64,000 nucleotides of DNA, from NCBI GenBank assembly GCA_964408935.1, contig CAYPBF010000002.1, positions 20,316 to 84,315 on the forward strand, in the 5' to 3' direction. Below, one piece after another: positions 49,628 through 60,099 of this stretch. Numbering within the stretch: position 1 is the stretch's first letter; the number at the start of each line of letters is the position of its first letter. This DNA comes from an uncultured Dehalococcoidales bacterium (GTDB lineage Bacteria; Chloroflexota; Dehalococcoidia; Dehalococcoidales; BS750m-G39). A model generated the notes under the pieces. That model ran no database searches. It had not been told where the DNA came from and worked only from the letters and a program-made list of their open reading frames with translations. The translations under genes were made by a program, and so were the position numbers.

Positions 49628-50107
49628 ATGGTGCAGACGCTGACGGTAGCCGACAAAGAAGTCGACGAAATCATCGCTAAATACCGGGGTGATAAGTCGG
49701 CTTTAATTCAGGTGCTCATTGAGGTTCAGCGCCGGAAACGCTGGCTTTCCAAGGAGACTCTAAAACAGGTCAGTGATAGGCTGGGCGTAGCCCTGACCCA
49801 GATTTACCATATCGCTACCTTCTACAAGGTCTTCAGCCTGACACCACGGGGACGGCACTCGGTAACGGTTTGTTTGGGCACGGCCTGCCAGGTGCGGGGC
49901 GCGCCGCGACTTATGGATAACATCACCCAGACCCTGAAGATAAACGCCGGCCAGACCTCCGCCGACGAGCAGTTCAGCCTGGATACGGCGCGGTGCCTGG
50001 GCTGTTGCGCCATAGGGCCGGTGATGGTGGTGGACGGCGAATACTACAGCAAACCTTCTCGTAAAGAGGTCGAGCAGGTTATTTCGGCCAAAGAAATCGA
50101 GAGTTAA
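49628..50107 (+). CDS. NuoE/HydC-like [2Fe-2S] subunit
   Basis: ATFYKVF, CLGTACQVRG, CLGCCAIGP. Confidence 0.92.
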   Translation: MVQTLTVADKEVDEIIAKYRGDKSALIQVLIEVQRRKRWLSKETLKQVSDRLGVALTQIYHIATFYKVFSLTPRGRHSVTVCLGTACQVRGAPRLMDNITQTLKINAGQTSADEQFSLDTARCLGCCAIGPVMVVDGEYYSKPSRKEVEQVISAKEIES

Positions 50108-50121
50108 GAAAGGAGAGGGTT

Positions 50122-52029
50122 ATGCCTCGGTTAAACTCAGCCACAGACCTGGAAAAGCTCCGAAAGCAGTTGCAAGACAAAAACAAGGGGAAAAGAACCG
50201 TTTCGGTGACCAACGGAACGGACGGCCGGACGCGTCACAGCGAGGTCGTCTTCCGTGCCCTGAAGGATGAGATAAAAAAGCAGGGGTTGGGGGGAAAGGC
50301 GACGGTAAAGAGCACGGGGTGTCACGGCTTCTGTGAGCAGGAGCCGACGGTGCTCATTTCCCCTGAGGAAATCTGCTACGTTAGCGTGAAGCCAGAGGAC
50401 GTGCCCGAAATCGTCTCCAAGACGCTGGCTAAGGGCGAGGTTGTGGAGCATCTCCTCTACGAAGACCCGACCAGCGGGGATAAAATAGCAAAGGAGTCCG
50501 AGATACCATTCTACAAACCACAGGACAGGACCGTCCTGGGCAACAATAGACTGGTCGACATGGGCTCGATAGACGATTACATCGCCCTGGGCGGCTATTC
50601 GGCGCTGGCCAGGGTCCTTTCCGGGATGAAGCCTCAGCAGGTCATAGACGAGGTAAAAAAGTCGGGGCTGCGCGGGCGGGGTGGGGCCGGCTTCCCCACC
50701 GGGGTGAAGTGGGCGTTTTGCCGTAAGGCTCCGGGCGAGCCCAAATACGTCATCGTCAACTGCGACGAGGGCGACCCGGGGGCTTATATGGACCGCTCTC
50801 TTATGGAGGGCAACCCCCACAGCGTCCTGGAAGGGCTGCTCATCGGGGCTTACGCCATCGGCGCCGCCGAGGGCTATATCTACGTGCGCGCCGAGTACCC
50901 GCTGGCGGTGGAAAACGTGGAAACGGCCATCAAGCAGGCAGAGGAATACGGGCTGTTGGGGCAAAATATCCTGGGCTCGGGCTTCGATTTCAGGGTCTAT
51001 GTCCACCGGGGGGCGGGGGCTTTCGTTTGTGGCGAAGAGACGGCCCTTATCGCCTCGTTGGAGGGGCGGATTGGCGAGCCCAGGCAAAGGCCTCCCTTCC
51101 CCGCTACCAGTGGGCTCTGGGGCAAGCCGACCAATATAAACAATGTAGAGACCTGGGCAAACGTACCCTTGATAATCAATAAAGGCGCGGACTGGTTTCG
51201 CAGCCGGGGTACGGAGAGGAGCCAAGGCACCAAGATATTCTCGCTGGTGGGCAAGCTGAAGAATACCGGTCTGGTGGAAGCGCCCATGGGGATGACGCTG
51301 GGCGATATCGTCTTTAAAATCGGGGGCGGCATTCCCGACGGCAAGAAGTTCAAGGCTGTCCAGACAGGGGGGCCTTCGGGTGGGGTTATCCCCGAGAGCC
51401 TGCTCGATACCCCGGTGGATTACGAGGAGCTGACCAAGCTTGGGGCGATAATGGGCTCGGGCGGTATGATCGTTATGGACGAGGATACCTGCCTGGTGGA
51501 CGTGGCCCGCTATTTCGTCAACTTCCTGGCGGCGGAGTCCTGCGGGCGGTGCGTGCCCTGCCGTGAGGGGATATATCAGATGCTCAAGATACTGGATAGA
51601 ATCTGTGAGGGGAGGGGCCGGGAGGGTGATATTGAGCTGCTGCGGGAGATAGGAGAAACGGTGCGGGACTTCTCGCTCTGCGCCCTGGGCAAGACGGCGG
51701 CCAATCCGGTCTTAAGCACCATCAAGTACTTCCGTGATGAGTACGAAGCCCATATCAAAGAAAAGCGCTGCCCCGCCCTGGTCTGCAAAGAGCTGATTGC
51801 CTACTACATCGAGCCTGAGAAGTGCCAAGCCTGCTTGATTTGTTTGCGGGACTGCCCCGCCGAGGCCATCAGCGGTGACAAGAAGGTCGTTCACGTCATC
51901 GACCAGACGAAGTGCACCAAGTGCGGGACGTGCCTTGAGGTCTGTCCGCCGCGCTTCAGCGCCGTGACCAAACTTTCCGGGGTGAAGGTGCCGGAACCGG
52001 TTAAAAAAGCGGCAGTAGTAAGGAAATGA
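50122..52029 (+). CDS. NuoF/HydB-like NADH-binding flavoprotein with C-terminal 2x[4Fe-4S]
   Basis: GLRGRGGAGFPTG, CDEGDPGAYMDR, GAGAFVCGEETAL, GGPSGG, ESCGRCVPCREG, two ferredoxin motifs. Confidence 0.95.
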   Translation: MPRLNSATDLEKLRKQLQDKNKGKRTVSVTNGTDGRTRHSEVVFRALKDEIKKQGLGGKATVKSTGCHGFCEQEPTVLISPEEICYVSVKPEDVPEIVSKTLAKGEVVEHLLYEDPTSGDKIAKESEIPFYKPQDRTVLGNNRLVDMGSIDDYIALGGYSALARVLSGMKPQQVIDEVKKSGLRGRGGAGFPTGVKWAFCRKAPGEPKYVIVNCDEGDPGAYMDRSLMEGNPHSVLEGLLIGAYAIGAAEGYIYVRAEYPLAVENVETAIKQAEEYGLLGQNILGSGFDFRVYVHRGAGAFVCGEETALIASLEGRIGEPRQRPPFPATSGLWGKPTNINNVETWANVPLIINKGADWFRSRGTERSQGTKIFSLVGKLKNTGLVEAPMGMTLGDIVFKIGGGIPDGKKFKAVQTGGPSGGVIPESLLDTPVDYEELTKLGAIMGSGGMIVMDEDTCLVDVARYFVNFLAAESCGRCVPCREGIYQMLKILDRICEGRGREGDIELLREIGETVRDFSLCALGKTAANPVLSTIKYFRDEYEAHIKEKRCPALVCKELIAYYIEPEKCQACLICLRDCPAEAISGDKKVVHVIDQTKCTKCGTCLEVCPPRFSAVTKLSGVKVPEPVKKAAVVRK

Positions 52030-52038
52030 GGTGGCAAA

Positions 52039-52677
52039 ATGGCCGAAGTTAGCTTGATTATCGATGACATCCTAGTTAAAGTCGACAAAGGGGCCACAAT
52101 CCTTGAGGCGGCGCGAAGCGCTGGTATCGATATCCCCACCCTCTGCTCCCACGAGGGGCTGGCTCCCTACGGCGCCTGCCGCCTTTGTACCGTGGAGATA
52201 AAGAGGGGGCAGCAATCACAGCTGGTGGCTTCTTGCGTTTATCCGGCGGAGGAGGGGATCATCGTTAAGACGGAATCGAAACCGGTGACCAGGGGGCGCA
52301 AGATGCTCCTGGAGCTGTTGTGGGCCCGTGCCCCCGGCGTCCAGGCGTTACGGGAATACGGCGTAAAGTACGGCATATCCGCCGTCCAGGAGGGGGGAGC
52401 TGACTACGGTATGGTTCCCGACATAGACGGAGTCCGAACCAAGTTCGAGGTGGAGCCCACCTTTTGTCTGCTTTGCGGGCTTTGCGTGCGCTATTGTAAC
52501 GAGGTGAAAAAGAAGAACGCCATCGGCTTCGTCGGACGGGGCACGGAACGGGAAGTGGTCTTTTTCCCCGAGTTAGCGGCTAACGGCTGTAGCCAGTGCG
52601 AGGACTGCTACCCGCTTTGCCCCACCGGCACGCTGCCTTTATACTACACACTGGCCGAGGTGCAGCAATCCGCCTAA
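52039..52677 (+). CDS. Short NuoG/HydA-N-terminal-like Fe-S protein, no catalytic domain
   Basis: IPTLC...GACRLCTVE...SC [2Fe-2S]; CLLCGLCVRYC and CSQCEDCYPLCP [4Fe-4S]; only 212 aa. Confidence 0.88.
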   Translation: MAEVSLIIDDILVKVDKGATILEAARSAGIDIPTLCSHEGLAPYGACRLCTVEIKRGQQSQLVASCVYPAEEGIIVKTESKPVTRGRKMLLELLWARAPGVQALREYGVKYGISAVQEGGADYGMVPDIDGVRTKFEVEPTFCLLCGLCVRYCNEVKKKNAIGFVGRGTEREVVFFPELAANGCSQCEDCYPLCPTGTLPLYYTLAEVQQSA

Positions 52678-52835: not shown

Positions 52836-53927
52836 TTAATCGACAACGGCGGCGAATTCGTCGGGCTTGAAGGCGGTGATGGGCAGTTCCTCCTCCAGGT
52901 CCCTCCCTGGCAGATAACCAAACGATTCCTGGACGGCCCCGCCCGTTTTCAGGGCAACTGCCCAGAGCGGGATATCGACCGGACACACATCGGAACATTG
53001 GCCGCATCCGATGCAGGTCAGGCTTACGTGGAATAACCTTACCAGCTGATAGAATATGGGGGCGGGCAGAATCTGTCCGCATCCGTTTCTCTCCAGCTGG
53101 GCTTCGTAGTAGTTCGGCTCGTGCTCATCGCCCCCAGAATCGAAGAAACAAACATGGCAGTAACAGGCGGGACAGACCTTACTGCAATTACGACAGCCTA
53201 TGCATTTCTCAAAGAGTTTGTTTACATCGAAGCTGTCGACGCCGAGTTCCTCGAACATCTCTTGCTTTCTGGTTTGCCTCTTGCTCCGCAGGCCATCAAT
53301 TGTTCCCGATTCGACCTCTTCCCCACTGACCTCGCCCTTAAAGCCTTCGGCAAACTCCTCGCCCTTTTCCGTATTTAGGTGTAGCAGGCATTGTTTGGCG
53401 GCATTGTTGCCAATCAGAGACAGAGTGATGTCGGCGTTATAGGGTACGAAGTGCTCACAAGCGGCACAGGCGGGCCTGATATCGGAGGCAATCTCGGCCT
53501 TTTTCACCGCCTCCCAATACGAGGGAAGCTTCTCCTCAATATTCCCGTCAACAGACATTTCCAGCGGATAGACCCCGCCGCAGGTCGAGCTAATCAATAA
53601 GAGGTTATCCAGGCTTCCCTGTTTTCGCTTCATGAGCTCGGTAAGTGCCCTCAGTTCGCAGGGCCTGACCACGGCGGCGATGGGTCGAGCGGCGGCTTCC
53701 ACCAGGGTAAGACGGGAAAGCACTTTGGCGGCACTGGCCGGCATCAAGGGGAAAAATGGCCTGGCTTCTTCGAGCGCCGCCGGGTCGGTAATCAACGAAT
53801 AGACAACGCCTTCATCCGCTTTTTCCAGGGTAAAAACCCCCTTGACCTTGCCGCTTTCTAGCAGGAACTTCAAAAACTCCAGCAAACATTCTTCCGCGCC
53901 CTTATTCAACTTCAACGCCTTGGGCAT
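52836..53927 (-). CDS. FdhB/FrhB-like flavo-Fe-S protein (paralog 2)
   Basis: AAVVRPCELRAL; CIGCRNCSKVCPACYCHVC; CIGCGQCSDVCP. Confidence 0.8.
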   Translation of the reverse strand: MPKALKLNKGAEECLLEFLKFLLESGKVKGVFTLEKADEGVVYSLITDPAALEEARPFFPLMPASAAKVLSRLTLVEAAARPIAAVVRPCELRALTELMKRKQGSLDNLLLISSTCGGVYPLEMSVDGNIEEKLPSYWEAVKKAEIASDIRPACAACEHFVPYNADITLSLIGNNAAKQCLLHLNTEKGEEFAEGFKGEVSGEEVESGTIDGLRSKRQTRKQEMFEELGVDSFDVNKLFEKCIGCRNCSKVCPACYCHVCFFDSGGDEHEPNYYEAQLERNGCGQILPAPIFYQLVRLFHVSLTCIGCGQCSDVCPVDIPLWAVALKTGGAVQESFGYLPGRDLEEELPITAFKPDEFAAVVD

Positions 53928-53929
53928 CT

Positions 53930-55078
53930 TTAAGCCTCCTGTTTGGCGGAGGTCTCTGCGTAAGACTGCTCCACTTCTTCGAACTCCTTCTCTTGATAAA
54001 CCCTTAAGGGCAGCGGTTCCTCGCGGCTCCTGCCGGGCACATAGTCAAATTCCGCCTGGTTTTGGTTGCCCACCAGGCTGAAGACCTGGGCAACCGGGAT
54101 GGCGGTAGGGCAGGCATCTTCACAAGCTCCGCATGATACGCAGGAGAGGGACATATGCAGCATACGTCCGATATGGAAGAGGAGGGTCTCGGGCGGAAGC
54201 CTCAGCCCACCGCCCATTTCGGCTCTGTCTAGGTAGTCTTCAAAGGCGAACTTCATATCACTTGAATCGAAGAAACACTGCCGGCAGTAGCATATGGGAC
54301 AGACCCGCATACAGTTGTGGCAGTTTATACACTGGCTAAAGGTTTTAAGCAGGTTATCCAATCCGGTGGCCTTGGACTTGAATTCCTGCATAAATTTCTG
54401 ACGTTCCCCTTTTCTCTTCTCGGTCAGGGATTTCACCGTCTGTTCCCAGCCCGATATGTCCTGGCTAGCTTCAAGGCCGAGCTTTTCCAGGATAGTTTCA
54501 CCTTTCGGGCTATTAGGGATGAGGAAAATACCGCCCTTGGCCCCCAGTATCCCTATATGCAGGTCTTCGGCGCCAGTGGCCGAGAATTTATCGCATATCT
54601 GGCAGGTGGGCCTTAAGTTCTCGCTGGCCTCCCCCTTTTGGACCTTGGCGAATACCTCCTCGGCTTTCTTGGCGTCCTTGGCCCAATCGGCCAGCGGCAA
54701 CGCGCCGGGACAATCGATGGTGATTAGGAATATGTTATCTAAGTCCACCTGCCCCAGTTTGAATAGCTCGACGGTGGCTCTGGCTTCACAGGGTCGCACC
54801 ATAGCGGCTATCTTCTTCTTGCCCTTGCCGTGTCCGGTAAGGCTGGAAATGGCTTTAGCTCCCTGAACGGTCATAACCGGGGGGAGGGGATAGGCGTTCT
54901 CTAGTAGCGACTCGTCTCGAATCAGTAAATAGCTGAACGAATCGGTCCCTGGCGCCCTTACGGGTATGAGGACGGCGTCAAAACAACCCTTGCCGATTGC
55001 CTGTTTAAGGAAAGCTATGACCTTTTCTCTTGGTCCGCCTTCGGCAGCGAAAAGCGCACCCTTTCTATCGACAGCCAT
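53930..55078 (-). CDS. FdhB/FrhB-like flavo-Fe-S protein (paralog 1)
   Basis: AAMVRPCEARAT; CINCHNCMRVCPICYCRQC; CVSCGACEDACP; AGAGGT RBS before ATG 55078. Confidence 0.8.
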   Translation of the reverse strand: MAVDRKGALFAAEGGPREKVIAFLKQAIGKGCFDAVLIPVRAPGTDSFSYLLIRDESLLENAYPLPPVMTVQGAKAISSLTGHGKGKKKIAAMVRPCEARATVELFKLGQVDLDNIFLITIDCPGALPLADWAKDAKKAEEVFAKVQKGEASENLRPTCQICDKFSATGAEDLHIGILGAKGGIFLIPNSPKGETILEKLGLEASQDISGWEQTVKSLTEKRKGERQKFMQEFKSKATGLDNLLKTFSQCINCHNCMRVCPICYCRQCFFDSSDMKFAFEDYLDRAEMGGGLRLPPETLLFHIGRMLHMSLSCVSCGACEDACPTAIPVAQVFSLVGNQNQAEFDYVPGRSREEPLPLRVYQEKEFEEVEQSYAETSAKQEA

Positions 55079-55090
55079 ATCAGACACCTC

Positions 55091-56797
55091 TTATCGCAAT
55101 ACCTCTTTAAGCTCTTGGTAAATCTGGGGGAAGGTAAAATGCTTCAGCCTGGCGGCTCCGGAGGGACAGGCGGCGGCACAGTTACCGCAGCCGTGGCACA
55201 AGACCTCGTTCACCACCGAGACCATCCTGTCTTCGTCGAAGCTAATAGCACCGTAGGGGCAAACATCGAGGCAGGTCTTACAACCGGTACAGAAATTCTC
55301 CGATATCTCGGATACCCTGACCTCTAGCTCCAGCTTCTTCCCCGGAACCAGCGCCGAGAGTATTTTACCCGCCGCCGCCTCCGATTGGACTATGGACTCG
55401 GCGATACTCTGAGGCCCCCGGGCGCAGCCGATAACGAATACCCCCTCGACGGCGGAGGCTATCGGGCCAAGTAACTGGTGCTCTTCGACTAAAAAGCCTC
55501 TATCGTCATGGGGGATTTTTAGCATTTCGGCGAACTTATTGGCATCGCCGGCGGGCTCCATCGCCGGCAGGAGGATAACCATGTCCGCCGCCAGCTCGCC
55601 TTTCTTACCGGTCTCCGTTTCGTATTTGATGGTGGGGCCCTTGCCGTTGCCGCTGACCTCGGTTTTGGCCGCGCGGATATAGTCGGCGCCCAAGCCCCTG
55701 GTATCTTCGTAAAACTTCTGGAAAGACTTGCCCGGAATAACCAGGTCGGAGTAGAAATGGGTCACCTTGACCTGGGGCAGTTGTGATTTAAGCATGCGGT
55801 CGAATTTGAAGGAGTAGGCGCAGCATACCTTGGAGCAGTAGCCCTTCTCCTCCCTGCCGGCGCAATGAATGATAGCCACCGACTGGGGAGGCTTACCGTT
55901 TTTAAGCAGGATTTTGCCGCCGGTAGGCCCTTCGGGGATATTCATCACCTCGAACTCTAAACCAGTATAAACATCGTCTATCTTCCCGTAACCATACCGG
56001 GGCAGACCGCTGAGGTCAAAAAGCTCGAAGCCGGTAGCCAGTATCACCGCCCCGACATTGAAGTCGAGCTCTTTGTCTTCAGCGTCCTCAGCTTTCTTTA
56101 CCACCTTTACCTCAAAATTACCCAGGAAGCCCAGAATCTGCTCCACCTCGCTCTCGGTAAGCACCTGGATATGCTTATTGTCGAGGAGGCCCTTTATCTC
56201 CTTGGTTATCAGGCCTGGGCCGGATTCCATGTTGACGAAGAGCTGGCTCAAGCCCTTCACCTTACCGCCCAGCGAAGAGCTTTTCTCCACCAGATAGACT
56301 TTTCTATCCGGTGACGCCAGCACCTGGCTGGCTTTGATGCCGGCAATGCCGCCGCCGATTACCAGCACGTCGGGATTGCACTCAATCTCCTTGTTCTCTA
56401 GGGGGTTGTGATAGCCCACCCGGCTGATGGCGGCTCTTATTTGTCTTATCGCTTTATCGGTAGCTTCGGCTCCGTCCGGCGTGACCCAGGCGCACTGTTC
56501 GCGTATATTGGCCAGCTGGAATAGCTGCGGATTGAGGCCCGCTTTTTGGCAGACATTCATGAAGGTAATCTCGTGCTGCTTTGGCGAGCAGGCCGCCACC
56601 ACCAGGTGCGTCAGGCCGTGCTCTTCGATAGCCTGCTCGAGGAATTTCTGCCCGTCGCCAGAGCATAAGAGTTTATACTTCTCGGCAACAACTACATCTT
56701 TGAGGGGGTTAACGGCCTCAATTACCTGGTCAACATCTACCTTTTCGGCGATGTTGGTGCCGCATTCGCAAACGTATACGCCTATTCTCTTGGCCAC
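55091..56797 (-). CDS. hdrA: HdrA-like flavoprotein (N-terminal domain + FAD domain + C-terminal ferredoxin, no inserted ferredoxin)
   Basis: VYVCECGTNI, VAACSPK, ANIREQC, IGGGIAG, GPTGG, YCSKVCC, CTGCKTCLDVCP/CHGCGNCAAACP. Confidence 0.9.
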   Translation of the reverse strand: MAKRIGVYVCECGTNIAEKVDVDQVIEAVNPLKDVVVAEKYKLLCSGDGQKFLEQAIEEHGLTHLVVAACSPKQHEITFMNVCQKAGLNPQLFQLANIREQCAWVTPDGAEATDKAIRQIRAAISRVGYHNPLENKEIECNPDVLVIGGGIAGIKASQVLASPDRKVYLVEKSSSLGGKVKGLSQLFVNMESGPGLITKEIKGLLDNKHIQVLTESEVEQILGFLGNFEVKVVKKAEDAEDKELDFNVGAVILATGFELFDLSGLPRYGYGKIDDVYTGLEFEVMNIPEGPTGGKILLKNGKPPQSVAIIHCAGREEKGYCSKVCCAYSFKFDRMLKSQLPQVKVTHFYSDLVIPGKSFQKFYEDTRGLGADYIRAAKTEVSGNGKGPTIKYETETGKKGELAADMVILLPAMEPAGDANKFAEMLKIPHDDRGFLVEEHQLLGPIASAVEGVFVIGCARGPQSIAESIVQSEAAAGKILSALVPGKKLELEVRVSEISENFCTGCKTCLDVCPYGAISFDEDRMVSVVNEVLCHGCGNCAAACPSGAARLKHFTFPQIYQELKEVLR

Positions 56798-56807
56798 TTT
56801 GCAACCT

Positions 56808-58091
56808 CTATTTCGATGATGAAAGTATTCTTCCCGCCGTCGCTTCCGCTTCGGCTACCGTCTCGGCAATATCCTTGGGCCCCTGGGCGCAGCCGGCGAT
56901 AAATATGCCGTCCTGGACAGTGGTTATGGAACTAAGGTCTGGTTCCTTCTCGCTAAAGAACCCGTCCTTATCCTGCTGGATGTTCAGAATCCCAGCCAGC
57001 TTGGCTGAATCGTGCCCCGGTTCCAGGGCCGGGTTGAGAATAACCATTTCCACGGTAAGGCTTTTCTCCTGGCCGTCTTCGGTTTTATGTTTAATAGCCA
57101 GTTCCTTCCCCGACTGGGAAACACCGGTTACCGTAGCCCGAACGAAGTCAACCCCGCTCTCTTTTACCTCTTGATAGAAATGCTGATAGTCTTTACCGGG
57201 AATACAGAGGTCGGAGTAGAAGTGGGTTATCTTCACCCCGGGCAGTTTTGCCTTAATGAAGTGGGAAAGCTTTAGAGAGGCCATGCAGCATACTGAAGAG
57301 CAATAGCCCTTCTGGTCACGCCCCACGCAGTGGATAATGGCCGCCGACTTGGGCGGCTGGCCGTTCTTTAGAGTAATCTGTCCCTGAGTGGGCCCGTTGG
57401 AGGCGCATATCCTCTCCACCTCCATGGCGGAGTAGACATCGCTGAGCTTCTTATACCCATATTGGGTGGTCTGACCAACGTCGAACGATGCGAAACCGGT
57501 GGCGACGACGATGGCGCCTACCTTGAGCTCCAGATCCTCGTCCTTCTGGGTGTAGTCGATGGCCTCAAACATACAGGCTTCCTGGCAGGCCTTGCACTCC
57601 TTCTTCCCCTTGAAGCGCAGGCAGTTCTCGGTGTCGATAACGGGGACATTAGGCAGCGCCCCGGCGCAGGGAATATATATCGCCTTACGCTTAGCCAGCC
57701 CTTCCTCGAATTCGTTATCCACCTCCACCGGGCAGGGGTCAAAACAGGCGTTGCAGCCGATGCAATTGCCCAGGTCAACGTAGCTCGCCTTTTTCCTGAC
57801 TTTCACCGAAAAATCGCCCGCCGAGCCGCTGACGGATTCGACCTGGCTTAGTCTGAGCAGCTCGATATTTTCGTCGGCTAAAAGCTCCTGCTGTTTGGGG
57901 GCTATCATACAGGTGGCGCAGTCCATGTTGGGGAATACTTCTTCAAATTTTATGACATTACCGCCGATGTACGAGCTCTTTTCGACGAGGTATACCTTTC
58001 TACCCGAGTTGGCCAGGAGTAGGCTGGTCTCAATACCAGCAACACCGCCCCCGATAACCACTACCGGGGTATTCTGTCTTTTATCAGTCAT
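56808..58091 (-). CDS. hdrA: HdrA-like flavoprotein (FAD domain + inserted ferredoxin; lacks N-terminal and C-terminal domains)
   Basis: IGGGVAG, FPNMDCATC, CIGCNACFDPCP, CKACQEAC, GPTQG, YCSSVCC, GPKDI. Confidence 0.88.
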   Translation of the reverse strand: MTDKRQNTPVVVIGGGVAGIETSLLLANSGRKVYLVEKSSYIGGNVIKFEEVFPNMDCATCMIAPKQQELLADENIELLRLSQVESVSGSAGDFSVKVRKKASYVDLGNCIGCNACFDPCPVEVDNEFEEGLAKRKAIYIPCAGALPNVPVIDTENCLRFKGKKECKACQEACMFEAIDYTQKDEDLELKVGAIVVATGFASFDVGQTTQYGYKKLSDVYSAMEVERICASNGPTQGQITLKNGQPPKSAAIIHCVGRDQKGYCSSVCCMASLKLSHFIKAKLPGVKITHFYSDLCIPGKDYQHFYQEVKESGVDFVRATVTGVSQSGKELAIKHKTEDGQEKSLTVEMVILNPALEPGHDSAKLAGILNIQQDKDGFFSEKEPDLSSITTVQDGIFIAGCAQGPKDIAETVAEAEATAGRILSSSK

Positions 58092-58104: not shown

Positions 58105-58530
58105 CTATAGCGAAGTCTTTGTCTTCATGGGGTTGGGCCCCATTCCCGTAATCTGCTGAGCAAATTCGGTGGCTACGTCTTTGAATCTCTGTCCTTCCGA
58201 CGCCGACACCCAGGCAAGCATGAGCCGGTCCGAGTCCAGCCCCAGGGTTTCAAAGGTGTTCTTGAGAAGAGCAAACCGGCGGCGGGCATAGTAGTTCCCC
58301 TCCCGGTAGTGGCAGTCACCGGGGTGGCAGCCGGCAACGAGCACGCCGTCAGCGCCATGCAGTAGCGCCGTGGCCACCAGAACCGGGTCGACCCGGCCGG
58401 AGCACATCACCCTAATTACGGAAAGGGATGATGGCACTTCCAGCTTGGTTGCCCCGGCCAGGTCGGCGCCGGCATAGGAACACCAGTTACAAAGGAAGCC
58501 GACTATTTTGGGGGTGAAACCTGCTTCCAT
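58105..58530 (-). CDS. mvhD: MvhD/FlxD-like [2Fe-2S] subunit (copy 2)
   Basis: FLCNWCSYAGAD, RVMCSGRVD, GCHPGDCHY. Confidence 0.93.
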   Translation of the reverse strand: MEAGFTPKIVGFLCNWCSYAGADLAGATKLEVPSSLSVIRVMCSGRVDPVLVATALLHGADGVLVAGCHPGDCHYREGNYYARRRFALLKNTFETLGLDSDRLMLAWVSASEGQRFKDVATEFAQQITGMGPNPMKTKTSL

Positions 58531-58542
58531 AAAACCTCCGGG

Positions 58543-58767
58543 CTAAAACTGGATTTGCGCCTTGTGTTTGCCCCCGCCTTCGTCGACGCAAAAGAGTAGC
58601 GTCTTATTCATCTTGCCGCACCAAGCCTCAACGTCTTTGGGGAAAGACTCGCAGTCAGCTATAACCTCTACGGTGTCTCCCGCCGGGATGCTTTTTGCCA
58701 TGGCGGCTAATTTAAGCACCGGCTGCGGGCATTTAAGCCCTAAAACATCCAATGTATGTAGTGCCAT
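58543..58767 (-). CDS. tusA: Sulfur carrier TusA/SirA family
   Basis: LDVLGLKCPQP (CPxP), VEAWC. Confidence 0.92.
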   Translation of the reverse strand: MALHTLDVLGLKCPQPVLKLAAMAKSIPAGDTVEVIADCESFPKDVEAWCGKMNKTLLFCVDEGGGKHKAQIQF

Positions 58768-58807: not shown

Positions 58808-59161
58808 TTAGAAAGAGAAGGTTATGTTAGCGTCCGAAATCGAGGCTATAAACGTAGTGGCGCCGATAATTTCCACGCCTTCTCTAAAATCCCCGGGTTT
58901 AAGGTCCTTGTTCTCCAGCGCCAGCTCACAGACGTAAATCTTGCCGCCCAGTGAGAGTATGCCGTCGTAAAGCTCTACGATGTTGGGTAGACCCTTGCCC
59001 GAGATTTTCTCCAACTCGCCCTTGACCATGGTCGGTGCACCACCGGGGCAACAGAATATGGTGACATCGTCCCCGCTTGCCGCCGCGCTGGAACCCAAAA
59101 TCATGGGCGGGTAAATGTTGGGGGGTGCCGAACCGTTAACCGTGATTGCTACTTTAGCCAT
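58808..59161 (-). CDS. DsrE/DsrF-like sulfur relay protein
   Basis: YPPMILGSSAAASGDDVTIF, GKIYVCELAL, EGVEIIGATTF. Confidence 0.85.
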   Translation of the reverse strand: MAKVAITVNGSAPPNIYPPMILGSSAAASGDDVTIFCCPGGAPTMVKGELEKISGKGLPNIVELYDGILSLGGKIYVCELALENKDLKPGDFREGVEIIGATTFIASISDANITFSF

Positions 59162-59218: not shown

Positions 59219-59677
59219 TCAGCTAACCGCCGCTTCCTGCTTCCTACCGCTATCTCGAGACACTTTTCTTACAATTGGATTGGGGCCAAGCTCCTTTATG
59301 GTTTGGGTAAAACTTTTCACCGTTTCGGCTATTTTGGGACCTTCGGAGGCGGCTATCCACTCTAATCTGAGCCTGTCCTTGCCGATACCCATGACTTCCA
59401 AGAAAGGAAAAAGTCCCGTCATCTTGCGGCGGGCATTGAGGTTTCCTTTCTGGTAATGGCAGTCTCCGGGGTGGCATCCGCAAACCAGAACGCCGTCGGC
59501 GCCGGCAATAAAAGCCTTGAGAATCATTCGCTCGTCGACCCGACCGGAGCACATTACCCTTATCACTTTAACGTTGGGGGGATACTTCAGGCGCGCGGTA
59601 CCAGCTAGGTCAGCGCCAGCGTAGGAACACCAGTTGCAGAGGAAACCGACTATTTTTGGCTCGAAATCGCCCGTCAT
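59219..59677 (-). CDS. mvhD: MvhD/FlxD-like [2Fe-2S] subunit (copy 1)
   Basis: FLCNWCSYAGAD, RVMCSGRVD, GCHPGDCHY. Confidence 0.93.
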   Translation of the reverse strand: MTGDFEPKIVGFLCNWCSYAGADLAGTARLKYPPNVKVIRVMCSGRVDERMILKAFIAGADGVLVCGCHPGDCHYQKGNLNARRKMTGLFPFLEVMGIGKDRLRLEWIAASEGPKIAETVKSFTQTIKELGPNPIVRKVSRDSGRKQEAAVS

Positions 59678-59755
59678 CACACTTCTTGGGCGCAGCACTA
59701 TAGCTCGGCCTTATTATGTGGTAAAATTAAAGAGCTAAAGAGCTCTACCCAAAGT

Positions 59756-59785: not shown

Positions 59786-59817
59786 TACTTACATTAAGGG
59801 GCTAAGTGAGAGGTGAA

Positions 59818-60099
59818 ATGGTAGAAGAACCGGTATCTAAAGAAACATTATTACAGCGTCTAAAGAGGGCGGAGGGCCAGATTCGCGGTATCGAAAAGAT
59901 GATTGAAGCCGGCCGCCAGTGTGAAGACGTGGTTACCCAGCTGGCGGCGGTGCGCTCCGCCATCGAGGGTACTGCTGCCCTTCTCCTGAAAAACTACATG
60001 AGAATCTGTTTCCAAGGTGAGACGCCGACAGAGTGCGTTGACGTGGAATCCCTGGCCCGGGCCATCGCTATCTGGGGCAGGGTTCATGTTGGGGACTAG
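59818..60099 (+). CDS. CsoR/RcnR/CstR-family repressor (His ligand replaced by Tyr)
   Basis: RLKRAEGQIRGIEKMI, RQCEDVVTQLAAVRSA, LKNYMRIC; AGAGGT RBS. Confidence 0.9.
   Translation: MVEEPVSKETLLQRLKRAEGQIRGIEKMIEAGRQCEDVVTQLAAVRSAIEGTAALLLKNYMRICFQGETPTECVDVESLARAIAIWGRVHVGD

Follow-up and report, generated by a model that had tools for sequence, protein, structure and literature searches.

A conserved tandem pair of HdrA proteins with complementary domains, predicted to act as an asymmetric heterodimer

In a 64,000-nucleotide (nt) stretch of the genome of an uncultured Dehalococcoidales bacterium (assembly GCA_964408935.1, contig CAYPBF010000002.1, positions 20,316 to 84,315 of the forward strand; hereafter, the window), we found two adjacent minus-strand genes encoding paralogs of HdrA, the central flavoprotein of one of the main systems of flavin-based electron bifurcation. 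The two proteins, HdrA' (427 amino acids (aa); window positions 56808..58091) and HdrA'' (568 aa; 55091..56797), divide the domains and cofactor ligands of canonical HdrA between them. Judging from their sequences they very probably form a heterodimer of one kind or another, and we put at roughly three in four the probability that this heterodimer is obligate and pseudo-twofold, with a single complete bifurcation unit and hence a single electron path.

The domain content of the pair was established by alignment to the solved HdrA chains of methanogens (8rvu/8rvv, 7bkb, 5odc and 9sfi). HdrA' aligned as one piece with residues 143-556 of methanogen HdrA (8rvv/8rvu/5odc; E 1e-94 to 4e-89), a region comprising the thioredoxin-reductase-like core that binds flavin adenine dinucleotide (FAD) and the ferredoxin domain inserted into it. 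HdrA'' aligned with the same chains in two pieces (E 5e-118), its residues 1-237 and 237-566 matching residues 2-236 and 307-641, respectively, while the approximately 70 residues of the inserted ferredoxin were skipped. These alignments bear out the domain contents given in the original prediction, which had been read from the letters and translations of the window: HdrA' keeps the DCxxC motif, the inserted 2x[4Fe-4S] ferredoxin and the core [4Fe-4S] cluster and lacks the N-terminal cluster domain as well as a C-terminal ferredoxin, and HdrA'' has the N-terminal domain, the core cluster and a C-terminal 2x[4Fe-4S] ferredoxin and lacks DCxxC and the inserted ferredoxin. Of the four accessory features that canonical HdrA carries in one chain, each protein retains two, and the NCBIfam HdrA models gave the two proteins 434 and 507 bits, with cut-offs of 1100-1400. 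The cores of HdrA' and HdrA'' are 46-48% identical, and aligning both together with two canonical HdrAs (653 aa) from related genomes makes the four reciprocal differences directly visible.

At the site of the methanogen motif (FPTLDCSMC), HdrA' reads FPNMDCATC and HdrA'' reads FVNMESGPG (56213..56239). The HdrA' residues D57-C58-A-T-C61 (57909..57923) are the equivalent of Cys197/DCxxC in methanogen HdrA. HdrA' further carries the eight Cys of the inserted ferredoxin (C110/113/116/120 and C157/166/169/173; residues ~103-180, 57552..57785) and the core-cluster Cys C255/264/268/269, followed by K274 at the position equivalent to K409. In HdrA'', C10, C12, C45 and C70 are retained in the N-terminal cluster domain (residues 1-135; 56393..56797), as are the core-cluster Cys C312/321/325/326, followed by K331, and the eight Cys of the C-terminal ferredoxin domain (55148..55315). 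Both proteins possess the thioredoxin-reductase-like FAD fold with its GxGxxG and C-terminal G-x-x-GP motifs and a Lys past the CC pair, so that the FAD fold, core-cluster Cys and Lys that had been listed as shared indeed are. The GPT motif listed with them is present in this HdrA'' (PEGPT, residues 288-292; 55922-55936) but is not a trait of its family, since the loop is deleted in 18/34 HdrA'' orthologues; in HdrA', SNGPT is invariant.

The complementary arrangement is well conserved. A first scan of species-representative genomes returned 42 related loci, and a second, with the family alignment as query, found the family in at least 244 species-level genomes; counts over 80 given below rest on the best 80 loci. 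The related loci, all from uncultured organisms, span about ten bacterial and archaeal phyla, with Dehalococcoidia, Thermoplasmata/Thermoplasmatales, Methanomassiliicoccaceae, WOR-3, Cloacimonadota, Aminicenantes, Aerophobota, Clostridia, Fibrobacterota and Armatimonadota among the lineages represented, and the closest relatives (89-92% identity) are metagenome-assembled genomes of Dehalococcoidia. HdrA'' came directly after HdrA' in all 76 loci that had enough downstream sequence, starting at most 200 nt away in 75 of them and following a gap of ~0.9 kb in the remaining one. The intergenic gap is mostly 10-40 nt across loci; in the source genome HdrA'' begins with a GTG 10 nt past the HdrA' stop, with GAGG ahead of it, and because the two genes sit in different frames within the window, no read-through HdrA'-HdrA'' chain is produced. 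A search for sequencing runs brought up DNA metagenomes only.

DCxxC occurred in every HdrA' scored (75/75) and in none of the 67 full HdrA'' proteins, 66 of which had the N-terminal CxCG; one unit with the N-terminal domain and without the Cys197 equivalent, and another with the reverse, is thus the rule at these loci (75/75 and 66/67). In the first locus set the Fe-S ligand Cys were invariant or nearly so in both families. These comprise, in HdrA', C58/C61 (the DCATC motif being invariant in 39/39 orthologues, as in the 75/75) and twelve cluster Cys, of which the eight of the ferredoxin are invariant and those of the core are kept in 38-39/39, and, in HdrA'', four N-terminal (34/34), four core and eight C-terminal Cys, all invariant. 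The Lys after CC is invariant in both families as well (K331 in 34/34 HdrA'' orthologues), and the cofactor ligands remain unchanged down to 50% identity across phyla. Over 33 loci, the pairwise identities of HdrA' and HdrA'' were tightly correlated (r = 0.965, slope 1.0), with means of 62% and 60%. The adjacency, the invariant Cys and the parallel identities thus argue that the two genes are under equal purifying selection and have been inherited and transferred together. They also agree with the view taken in the original prediction that the split does not reflect decay: full-length HdrAs at homologous loci, which would have spoken for recent degeneration, were present at none of the 76 loci.

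Differences in constraint between the two families point to the same asymmetry. When column entropy was compared over 339 shared core columns in 67 HdrA'/HdrA'' pairs, overall values were similar (1.31 bits in HdrA' vs 1.43 bits in HdrA''), and the biggest local gap fell on the DCxxC segment, at 0.45-0.96 bits in HdrA' (residues 47-75) vs 2.0-2.4 bits in HdrA'' (residues 181-209). In fact, nowhere in the shared core is the HdrA'' family more variable than at FVNMESGPG. The reverse asymmetry was seen at HdrA'' residues 438-446 (EEHQLLGPI; window 55469-55495), which are conserved, with H440 and P445 invariant, while the equivalent in HdrA' is variable; this stretch corresponds to EAHPKLRP, conserved in canonical HdrA. 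Such an entropy pattern would be expected if just one inter-protomer site were still in use. Within HdrA'', constraint has been relaxed in the DCxxC segment only, which we count as a new observation.

The same design also exists as a single chain in the same genome. This genome (1.39 Mb, 97% complete) encodes at least five HdrA paralogs, one of which, on contig C8 (C8:12611-15775), is a 1054-aa double HdrA. Its first half combines DCSMC with the inserted ferredoxin and the core cluster and is devoid of the N-terminal domain; the second half carries the N-terminal CHCG domain, the core cluster and the C-terminal ferredoxin and lacks both DCxxC and the inserted ferredoxin. The partition of domains and ligands, and their N-to-C order, are therefore identical to those of HdrA' followed by HdrA'', and HdrL-type fusions show this layout as well. 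The fused protein differs in its ancestry, for it belongs to a separate clade in which its halves are sister to each other rather than to either HdrA' or HdrA''. CCG-domain (HdrB/D-like) genes flank it, and a 279-aa fusion of MvhD and ferredoxin follows, in an arrangement like that of BamDEF.

A fused HdrA dimer, the BamE subunit of the class II benzoyl-CoA reductase of Geobacter metallireducens, has been described by cryo-electron microscopy in a preprint (bioRxiv 10.64898/2026.04.10.717634). Its unit 1 holds the bifurcating FAD (B-FAD) with Lys280, a Lys close to the flavin N5, and Cys59-Cys62 approaching cluster E3, one of clusters E1-E7; the second FAD (NB-FAD, Gln768) lies off the branch point and was judged structural (bioRxiv 10.64898/2026.04.10.717634). 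Compared with this published description, the HdrA'/HdrA'' pair likewise consists of two unequal HdrA units that together would account for seven [4Fe-4S] clusters and two FAD, with an MvhD-type adaptor (BamF in that system) on the side of the C-terminal ferredoxin, and C58/C61 of HdrA' stand at almost the same residue numbers as Cys59-Cys62. BamE differs in being one polypeptide rather than the product of two genes and in having Gln in its second unit where HdrA'' has Lys. The partners differ as well: BamE works with BamD (HdrBC/D-like), BamBC and BamGHI, in place of which the HdrA'/HdrA'' operon has two FdhB-like genes, TusA and DsrE.

This operon is a single tight minus-strand unit that reads MvhD, DsrE-like, TusA-like, MvhD, HdrA', HdrA'' and two FdhB-like genes. 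The last two encode FdhB/ElpB-like Fe-S flavoprotein subunits of 385 aa (subunit 1; 53930..55087) and 363 aa (subunit 2; 52836..53927), which are 36% identical and each have 15 invariant Cys at equivalent positions. Both show full-length homology to the FdhB/ElpB chains solved in HdrA/MvhD complexes (best PDB match 9t1s_M, E 2e-33 and 1e-32; 8rvu_E and 7bkb_E also match both), and on the strength of this alignment we rejected the alternative that they are HdrC fusions. At least two MvhD genes were present in 37/42 complete loci. The one directly upstream of HdrA' (141 aa; 58105..58530) belongs to one orthologous group in all related loci; the idea that it represents the detached N-terminal domain of HdrA' was considered unlikely, the similarity covering 31 residues only (pairwise E 0.002) in a protein that is a full-length FlpD/MvhD. 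The second, at the operon head (159 aa; 59219..59698), falls in a clade specific to Dehalococcoidia loci (L020-L040), where it lies upstream; in the archaeal and other bacterial loci (L002-L019) the second MvhD is of a different clade and comes after the second FdhB-like gene.

No CCG domain (HdrB/HdrD-type) and no HdrC were found in the operon, CCG genes occurring on other contigs only. The genome encodes at least four FdhB/FrhB-like proteins, two in the operon and two on contig C1. A gene for the F420 ligase CofE (PF01996), the sole F420 biosynthesis gene that was searched, was not detected in the 97%-complete genome, and F420 is for this reason perhaps an unlikely substrate.

In the methanogen HdrA dimer, Cys197 of the DCxxC motif reaches across to contact or ligate the partner protomer's N-terminal [4Fe-4S] cluster (PMC9012536), as the original prediction had stated; in some species the residue is selenocysteine, as in M. 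maripaludis (Sec197), where it is discussed as a relay between FAD and the N-terminal cluster (PMC13518236). Electrons reach the FAD' of one HdrA through a mobile arm of its partner, which combines that partner's N- and C-terminal domains with MvhD (PMC12350162). In the light of these facts, HdrA' and HdrA'' would be the split-gene form of the double HdrA otherwise known from tandem pairs of anaerobic methanotrophic archaea (ANME) and from the single chains of BamE, HdrL and Moorella, and the pair would bind two FAD and 3 + 4 [4Fe-4S] clusters, the same inventory as in BamE. We infer the physical association of the two proteins, the direction of electron flow and the substrates. By homology, electrons from an FdhB-like subunit would enter the C-terminal ferredoxin of HdrA'' and pass to the [2Fe-2S] cluster of MvhD, with which that domain would form the mobile arm, and from there to the FAD of HdrA', the presumed bifurcating site. 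The low-potential electron would then travel by C58/C61 of HdrA' to the N-terminal cluster of HdrA'', on to the inserted ferredoxin of HdrA' and finally to ferredoxin, while the high-potential electron would leave by the core cluster of HdrA' to a partner other than HdrBC. The FAD of HdrA'' would be non-bifurcating, serving as a structural element or a plain relay, because on its side DCxxC has been lost, no partner arm is available and there is no inserted ferredoxin.

Several points weigh against this scheme. HdrA'' retains K331 (the flavin-N5 Lys), its FAD motifs and its core cluster in all orthologues, the non-bifurcating flavin of BamE having Gln at the position of that Lys, and a purely structural second flavin is for this reason not established. 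The single electron path that had originally been proposed is accordingly conditional, as the flavin of HdrA'' may have more than a structural role. In BamE, moreover, Cys59-Cys62 form a disulfide near cluster E3 (bioRxiv 10.64898/2026.04.10.717634). The presence of two FdhB-like genes and, as a rule, two MvhD genes points to more than one arm for entry or exit, and the operon provides neither a CCG-domain (HdrB/D-type) subunit nor HdrC to take the high-potential electron. As the canonical MvhD-docking arm is found on HdrA'' only, another binding place is needed for the remaining MvhD and FdhB-like subunit, which might make up the high-potential exit or act on the flavin of HdrA''. Two docking sites for the two MvhD, as first suggested, would be plausible.

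These same features would be accommodated by a heterodimer with two working flavins, in which the FAD of HdrA' bifurcates and that of HdrA'' is a second, non-bifurcating but catalytic point of entry or exit, to which the additional MvhD and FdhB-like subunit would be dedicated. Such an enzyme would have three ports, two for two electrons each and one for ferredoxin, instead of a single path with a dead flavin, and it would be in keeping with the invariant flavin site of HdrA'', the 15 Cys kept in both FdhB-like paralogs, the frequent second MvhD and the lack of HdrBC in the operon. We nonetheless regard it as unlikely: HdrA' has neither an N- nor a C-terminal arm to hold MvhD beside the HdrA'' flavin, the DCxxC-equivalent segment facing that flavin evolves freely, half of the HdrA'' orthologues have lost the GPT loop, and the second FAD of BamE, a fused analogue of known structure, lies outside the path of the electrons.

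Explanations that do without pairing fare much worse. HdrA' and HdrA'' might form separate homodimers or enter different complexes, for which the other HdrA paralogs and MvhD genes of the genome are potential partners, and their complementarity would then be coincidental. Against this stand the strict adjacency in 76/76 loci of bacteria and archaea, the mirrored trees with r = 0.965 and the existence of a natural fusion of the same design; in addition, a homodimer of HdrA'' would have no partner Cys for its invariant N-terminal cluster, and in one of HdrA' the invariant DCxxC would be left without a contact, which makes this explanation very improbable. Even less credence can be given to recent degeneration, with one or both genes as decaying remnants of a full-length hdrA. 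Each protein does lack two of the four canonical domains and scores far under the NCBIfam HdrA cut-offs, but both frames are intact, the ligands are invariant across phyla and the divergence of the paralogs is equal and parallel. The conserved complementarity, the co-inheritance and the fused version in the same genome thus favor the heterodimer that had been predicted from the window.

In a tree of the shared core, the HdrA' and HdrA'' families came out as sister clades (Shimodaira-Hasegawa-like approximate likelihood ratio test, SH-aLRT, 100) whose internal branching orders mirror each other. Apart from these, the two halves of the fused HdrAs made up sister clades of their own. The approximately unbiased (AU) test rejected one common origin for all HdrAs that have DCxxC and lack the N-terminal domain (p-AU 3e-47); the rejection held on the C-terminal 256 columns (p = 2e-48) and was marginal on the first 100 columns, which hold the motif (p = 0.04). 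Because the tree places the pairs apart and the AU test rejects one clade, the reciprocal loss appears to have evolved more than once, with HdrA' and HdrA'' deriving from their own duplication, although old gene conversion between tandem partners would look alike. Such repetition points to symmetry breaking in HdrA as a favored evolutionary route. Further HdrAs of unusual build were seen in other clades: complementary tandem proteins of 932 and 662 aa at L039:2767-7566, the larger of which carries extra sequence and which group with canonical HdrAs in the tree, and an upstream complementary tandem pair at L015:1258-4414. Locus L018 has a probable HdrA fusion of 768 aa.

Among sulfate reducers, QmoA and QmoB are likewise adjacent HdrA paralogs of unequal length that belong to one complex; that complex includes QmoC, a membrane subunit, and cooperates with adenosine 5'-phosphosulfate (APS) reductase. 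The operon studied here, unlike Qmo, has neither QmoC nor APS reductase. The canonical homodimer of methanogens (PDB 5ODC, 7BKB, 8RVU) shares with the HdrA'/HdrA'' pair the fold, the cofactor sites and, on the reading preferred here, the assembly of half-sites from two protomers and a donor arm of FdhB/ElpB and MvhD. The methanogen complexes, (MvhAGD/FdhAB-MvhD/ElpABC-HdrABC)2, have two identical complete sites, whereas HdrA'/HdrA'' would have one, with no HdrBC in the operon and no F420 ligase gene in the genome.

The principle of an asymmetric HdrA heterodimer is already published. Chadwick et al. 2022 proposed a symmetry-breaking heterodimer, its units complementary in the N-terminal domain and Cys197, for the ANME tandem HdrA 5/6 and 12/13 and the fused HdrA3/4, and likewise for the fused HdrA of the Moorella MetFV-HdrABC-MvhD complex (PMC9012536), and a fused analogue was visualised in 2026. 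Some of these gene clusters also carry FdhB without FdhA (PMC9012536). By that description, the copy with the N-terminal domain is named first in the ANME tandem pairs and makes up the N-terminal half where the units are fused; in the operon described here, HdrA' comes first. The HdrA'/HdrA'' family also differs from the ANME groups in occurring mainly in non-methane-cycling bacteria and Thermoplasmata, and no ANME genome was found among the best 80 related loci. HdrA'/HdrA'' is therefore a widespread, independently derived example of a published design. What is new is the pair's own duplication and its operon, which lacks HdrBC and has two FdhB/ElpB-like genes, usually two MvhD, TusA and DsrE; in the literature on Dehalococcoidia, Thermoprofundales, Aminicenantes and Cloacimonadota we found no description of it.

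The DsrE-like (117 aa; 58808..59161) and TusA-like (74 aa with a CPxP motif; 58543..58767) genes were found at 62/80 and 67/80 related loci, respectively. The small TusA-like gene, located between the DsrE-like gene and the MvhD at 58105-58530, had gone unmentioned in the original prediction. These two sulfur-carrier genes are embedded between both MvhD genes and are kept across phyla, and their co-occurrence with the operon hints at a sulfur-carrier partner. Divergent from the operon lies a plus-strand gene for a CsoR/RcnR/FrmR-family repressor (59806-60099), which scores below all NCBIfam cut-offs; a CsoR-family gene adjoins the operon in just 10/80 related loci, including loci of the Dehalococcoidia type. 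From the other side, a plus-strand module of NuoE, NuoF and a 212-aa protein corresponding to the N-terminal part of NuoG (49628-52677) converges on the operon and resembles BamGHI. A conserved functional link with this module was rejected, NuoF being adjacent in only 3/80 loci, though the two may be linked in the source genome.

A more far-reaching proposal, which we consider possible but rather unlikely, is that the operon encodes an uncharacterised bifurcating enzyme without HdrBC in which every part of an ancestral symmetric (MvhD-HdrA-FdhB)2 has been duplicated and has diverged. The HdrA'' flavin would then be a working one, the high-potential end would be a sulfur carrier (a persulfide or polysulfide bound to TusA or DsrE) or a second hydride carrier, and the asymmetry would have an origin separate from that in the ANME, BamE and HdrL lineages.

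As a split and co-translated pair, HdrA'/HdrA'' is more tractable than a fusion of 1000 residues when the question is which of the flavins bifurcates, since the halves lend themselves to separate mutation, tagging and expression. Among the hosts, which are uncultured anaerobes of sediments, are Dehalococcoidia, Thermoplasmata, Aminicenantes, Cloacimonadota and WOR-3. Since the family extends to so many species-level genomes of such organisms, the reaction catalyzed by HdrA'/HdrA'' is probably a common step of energy metabolism in anoxic sediments.

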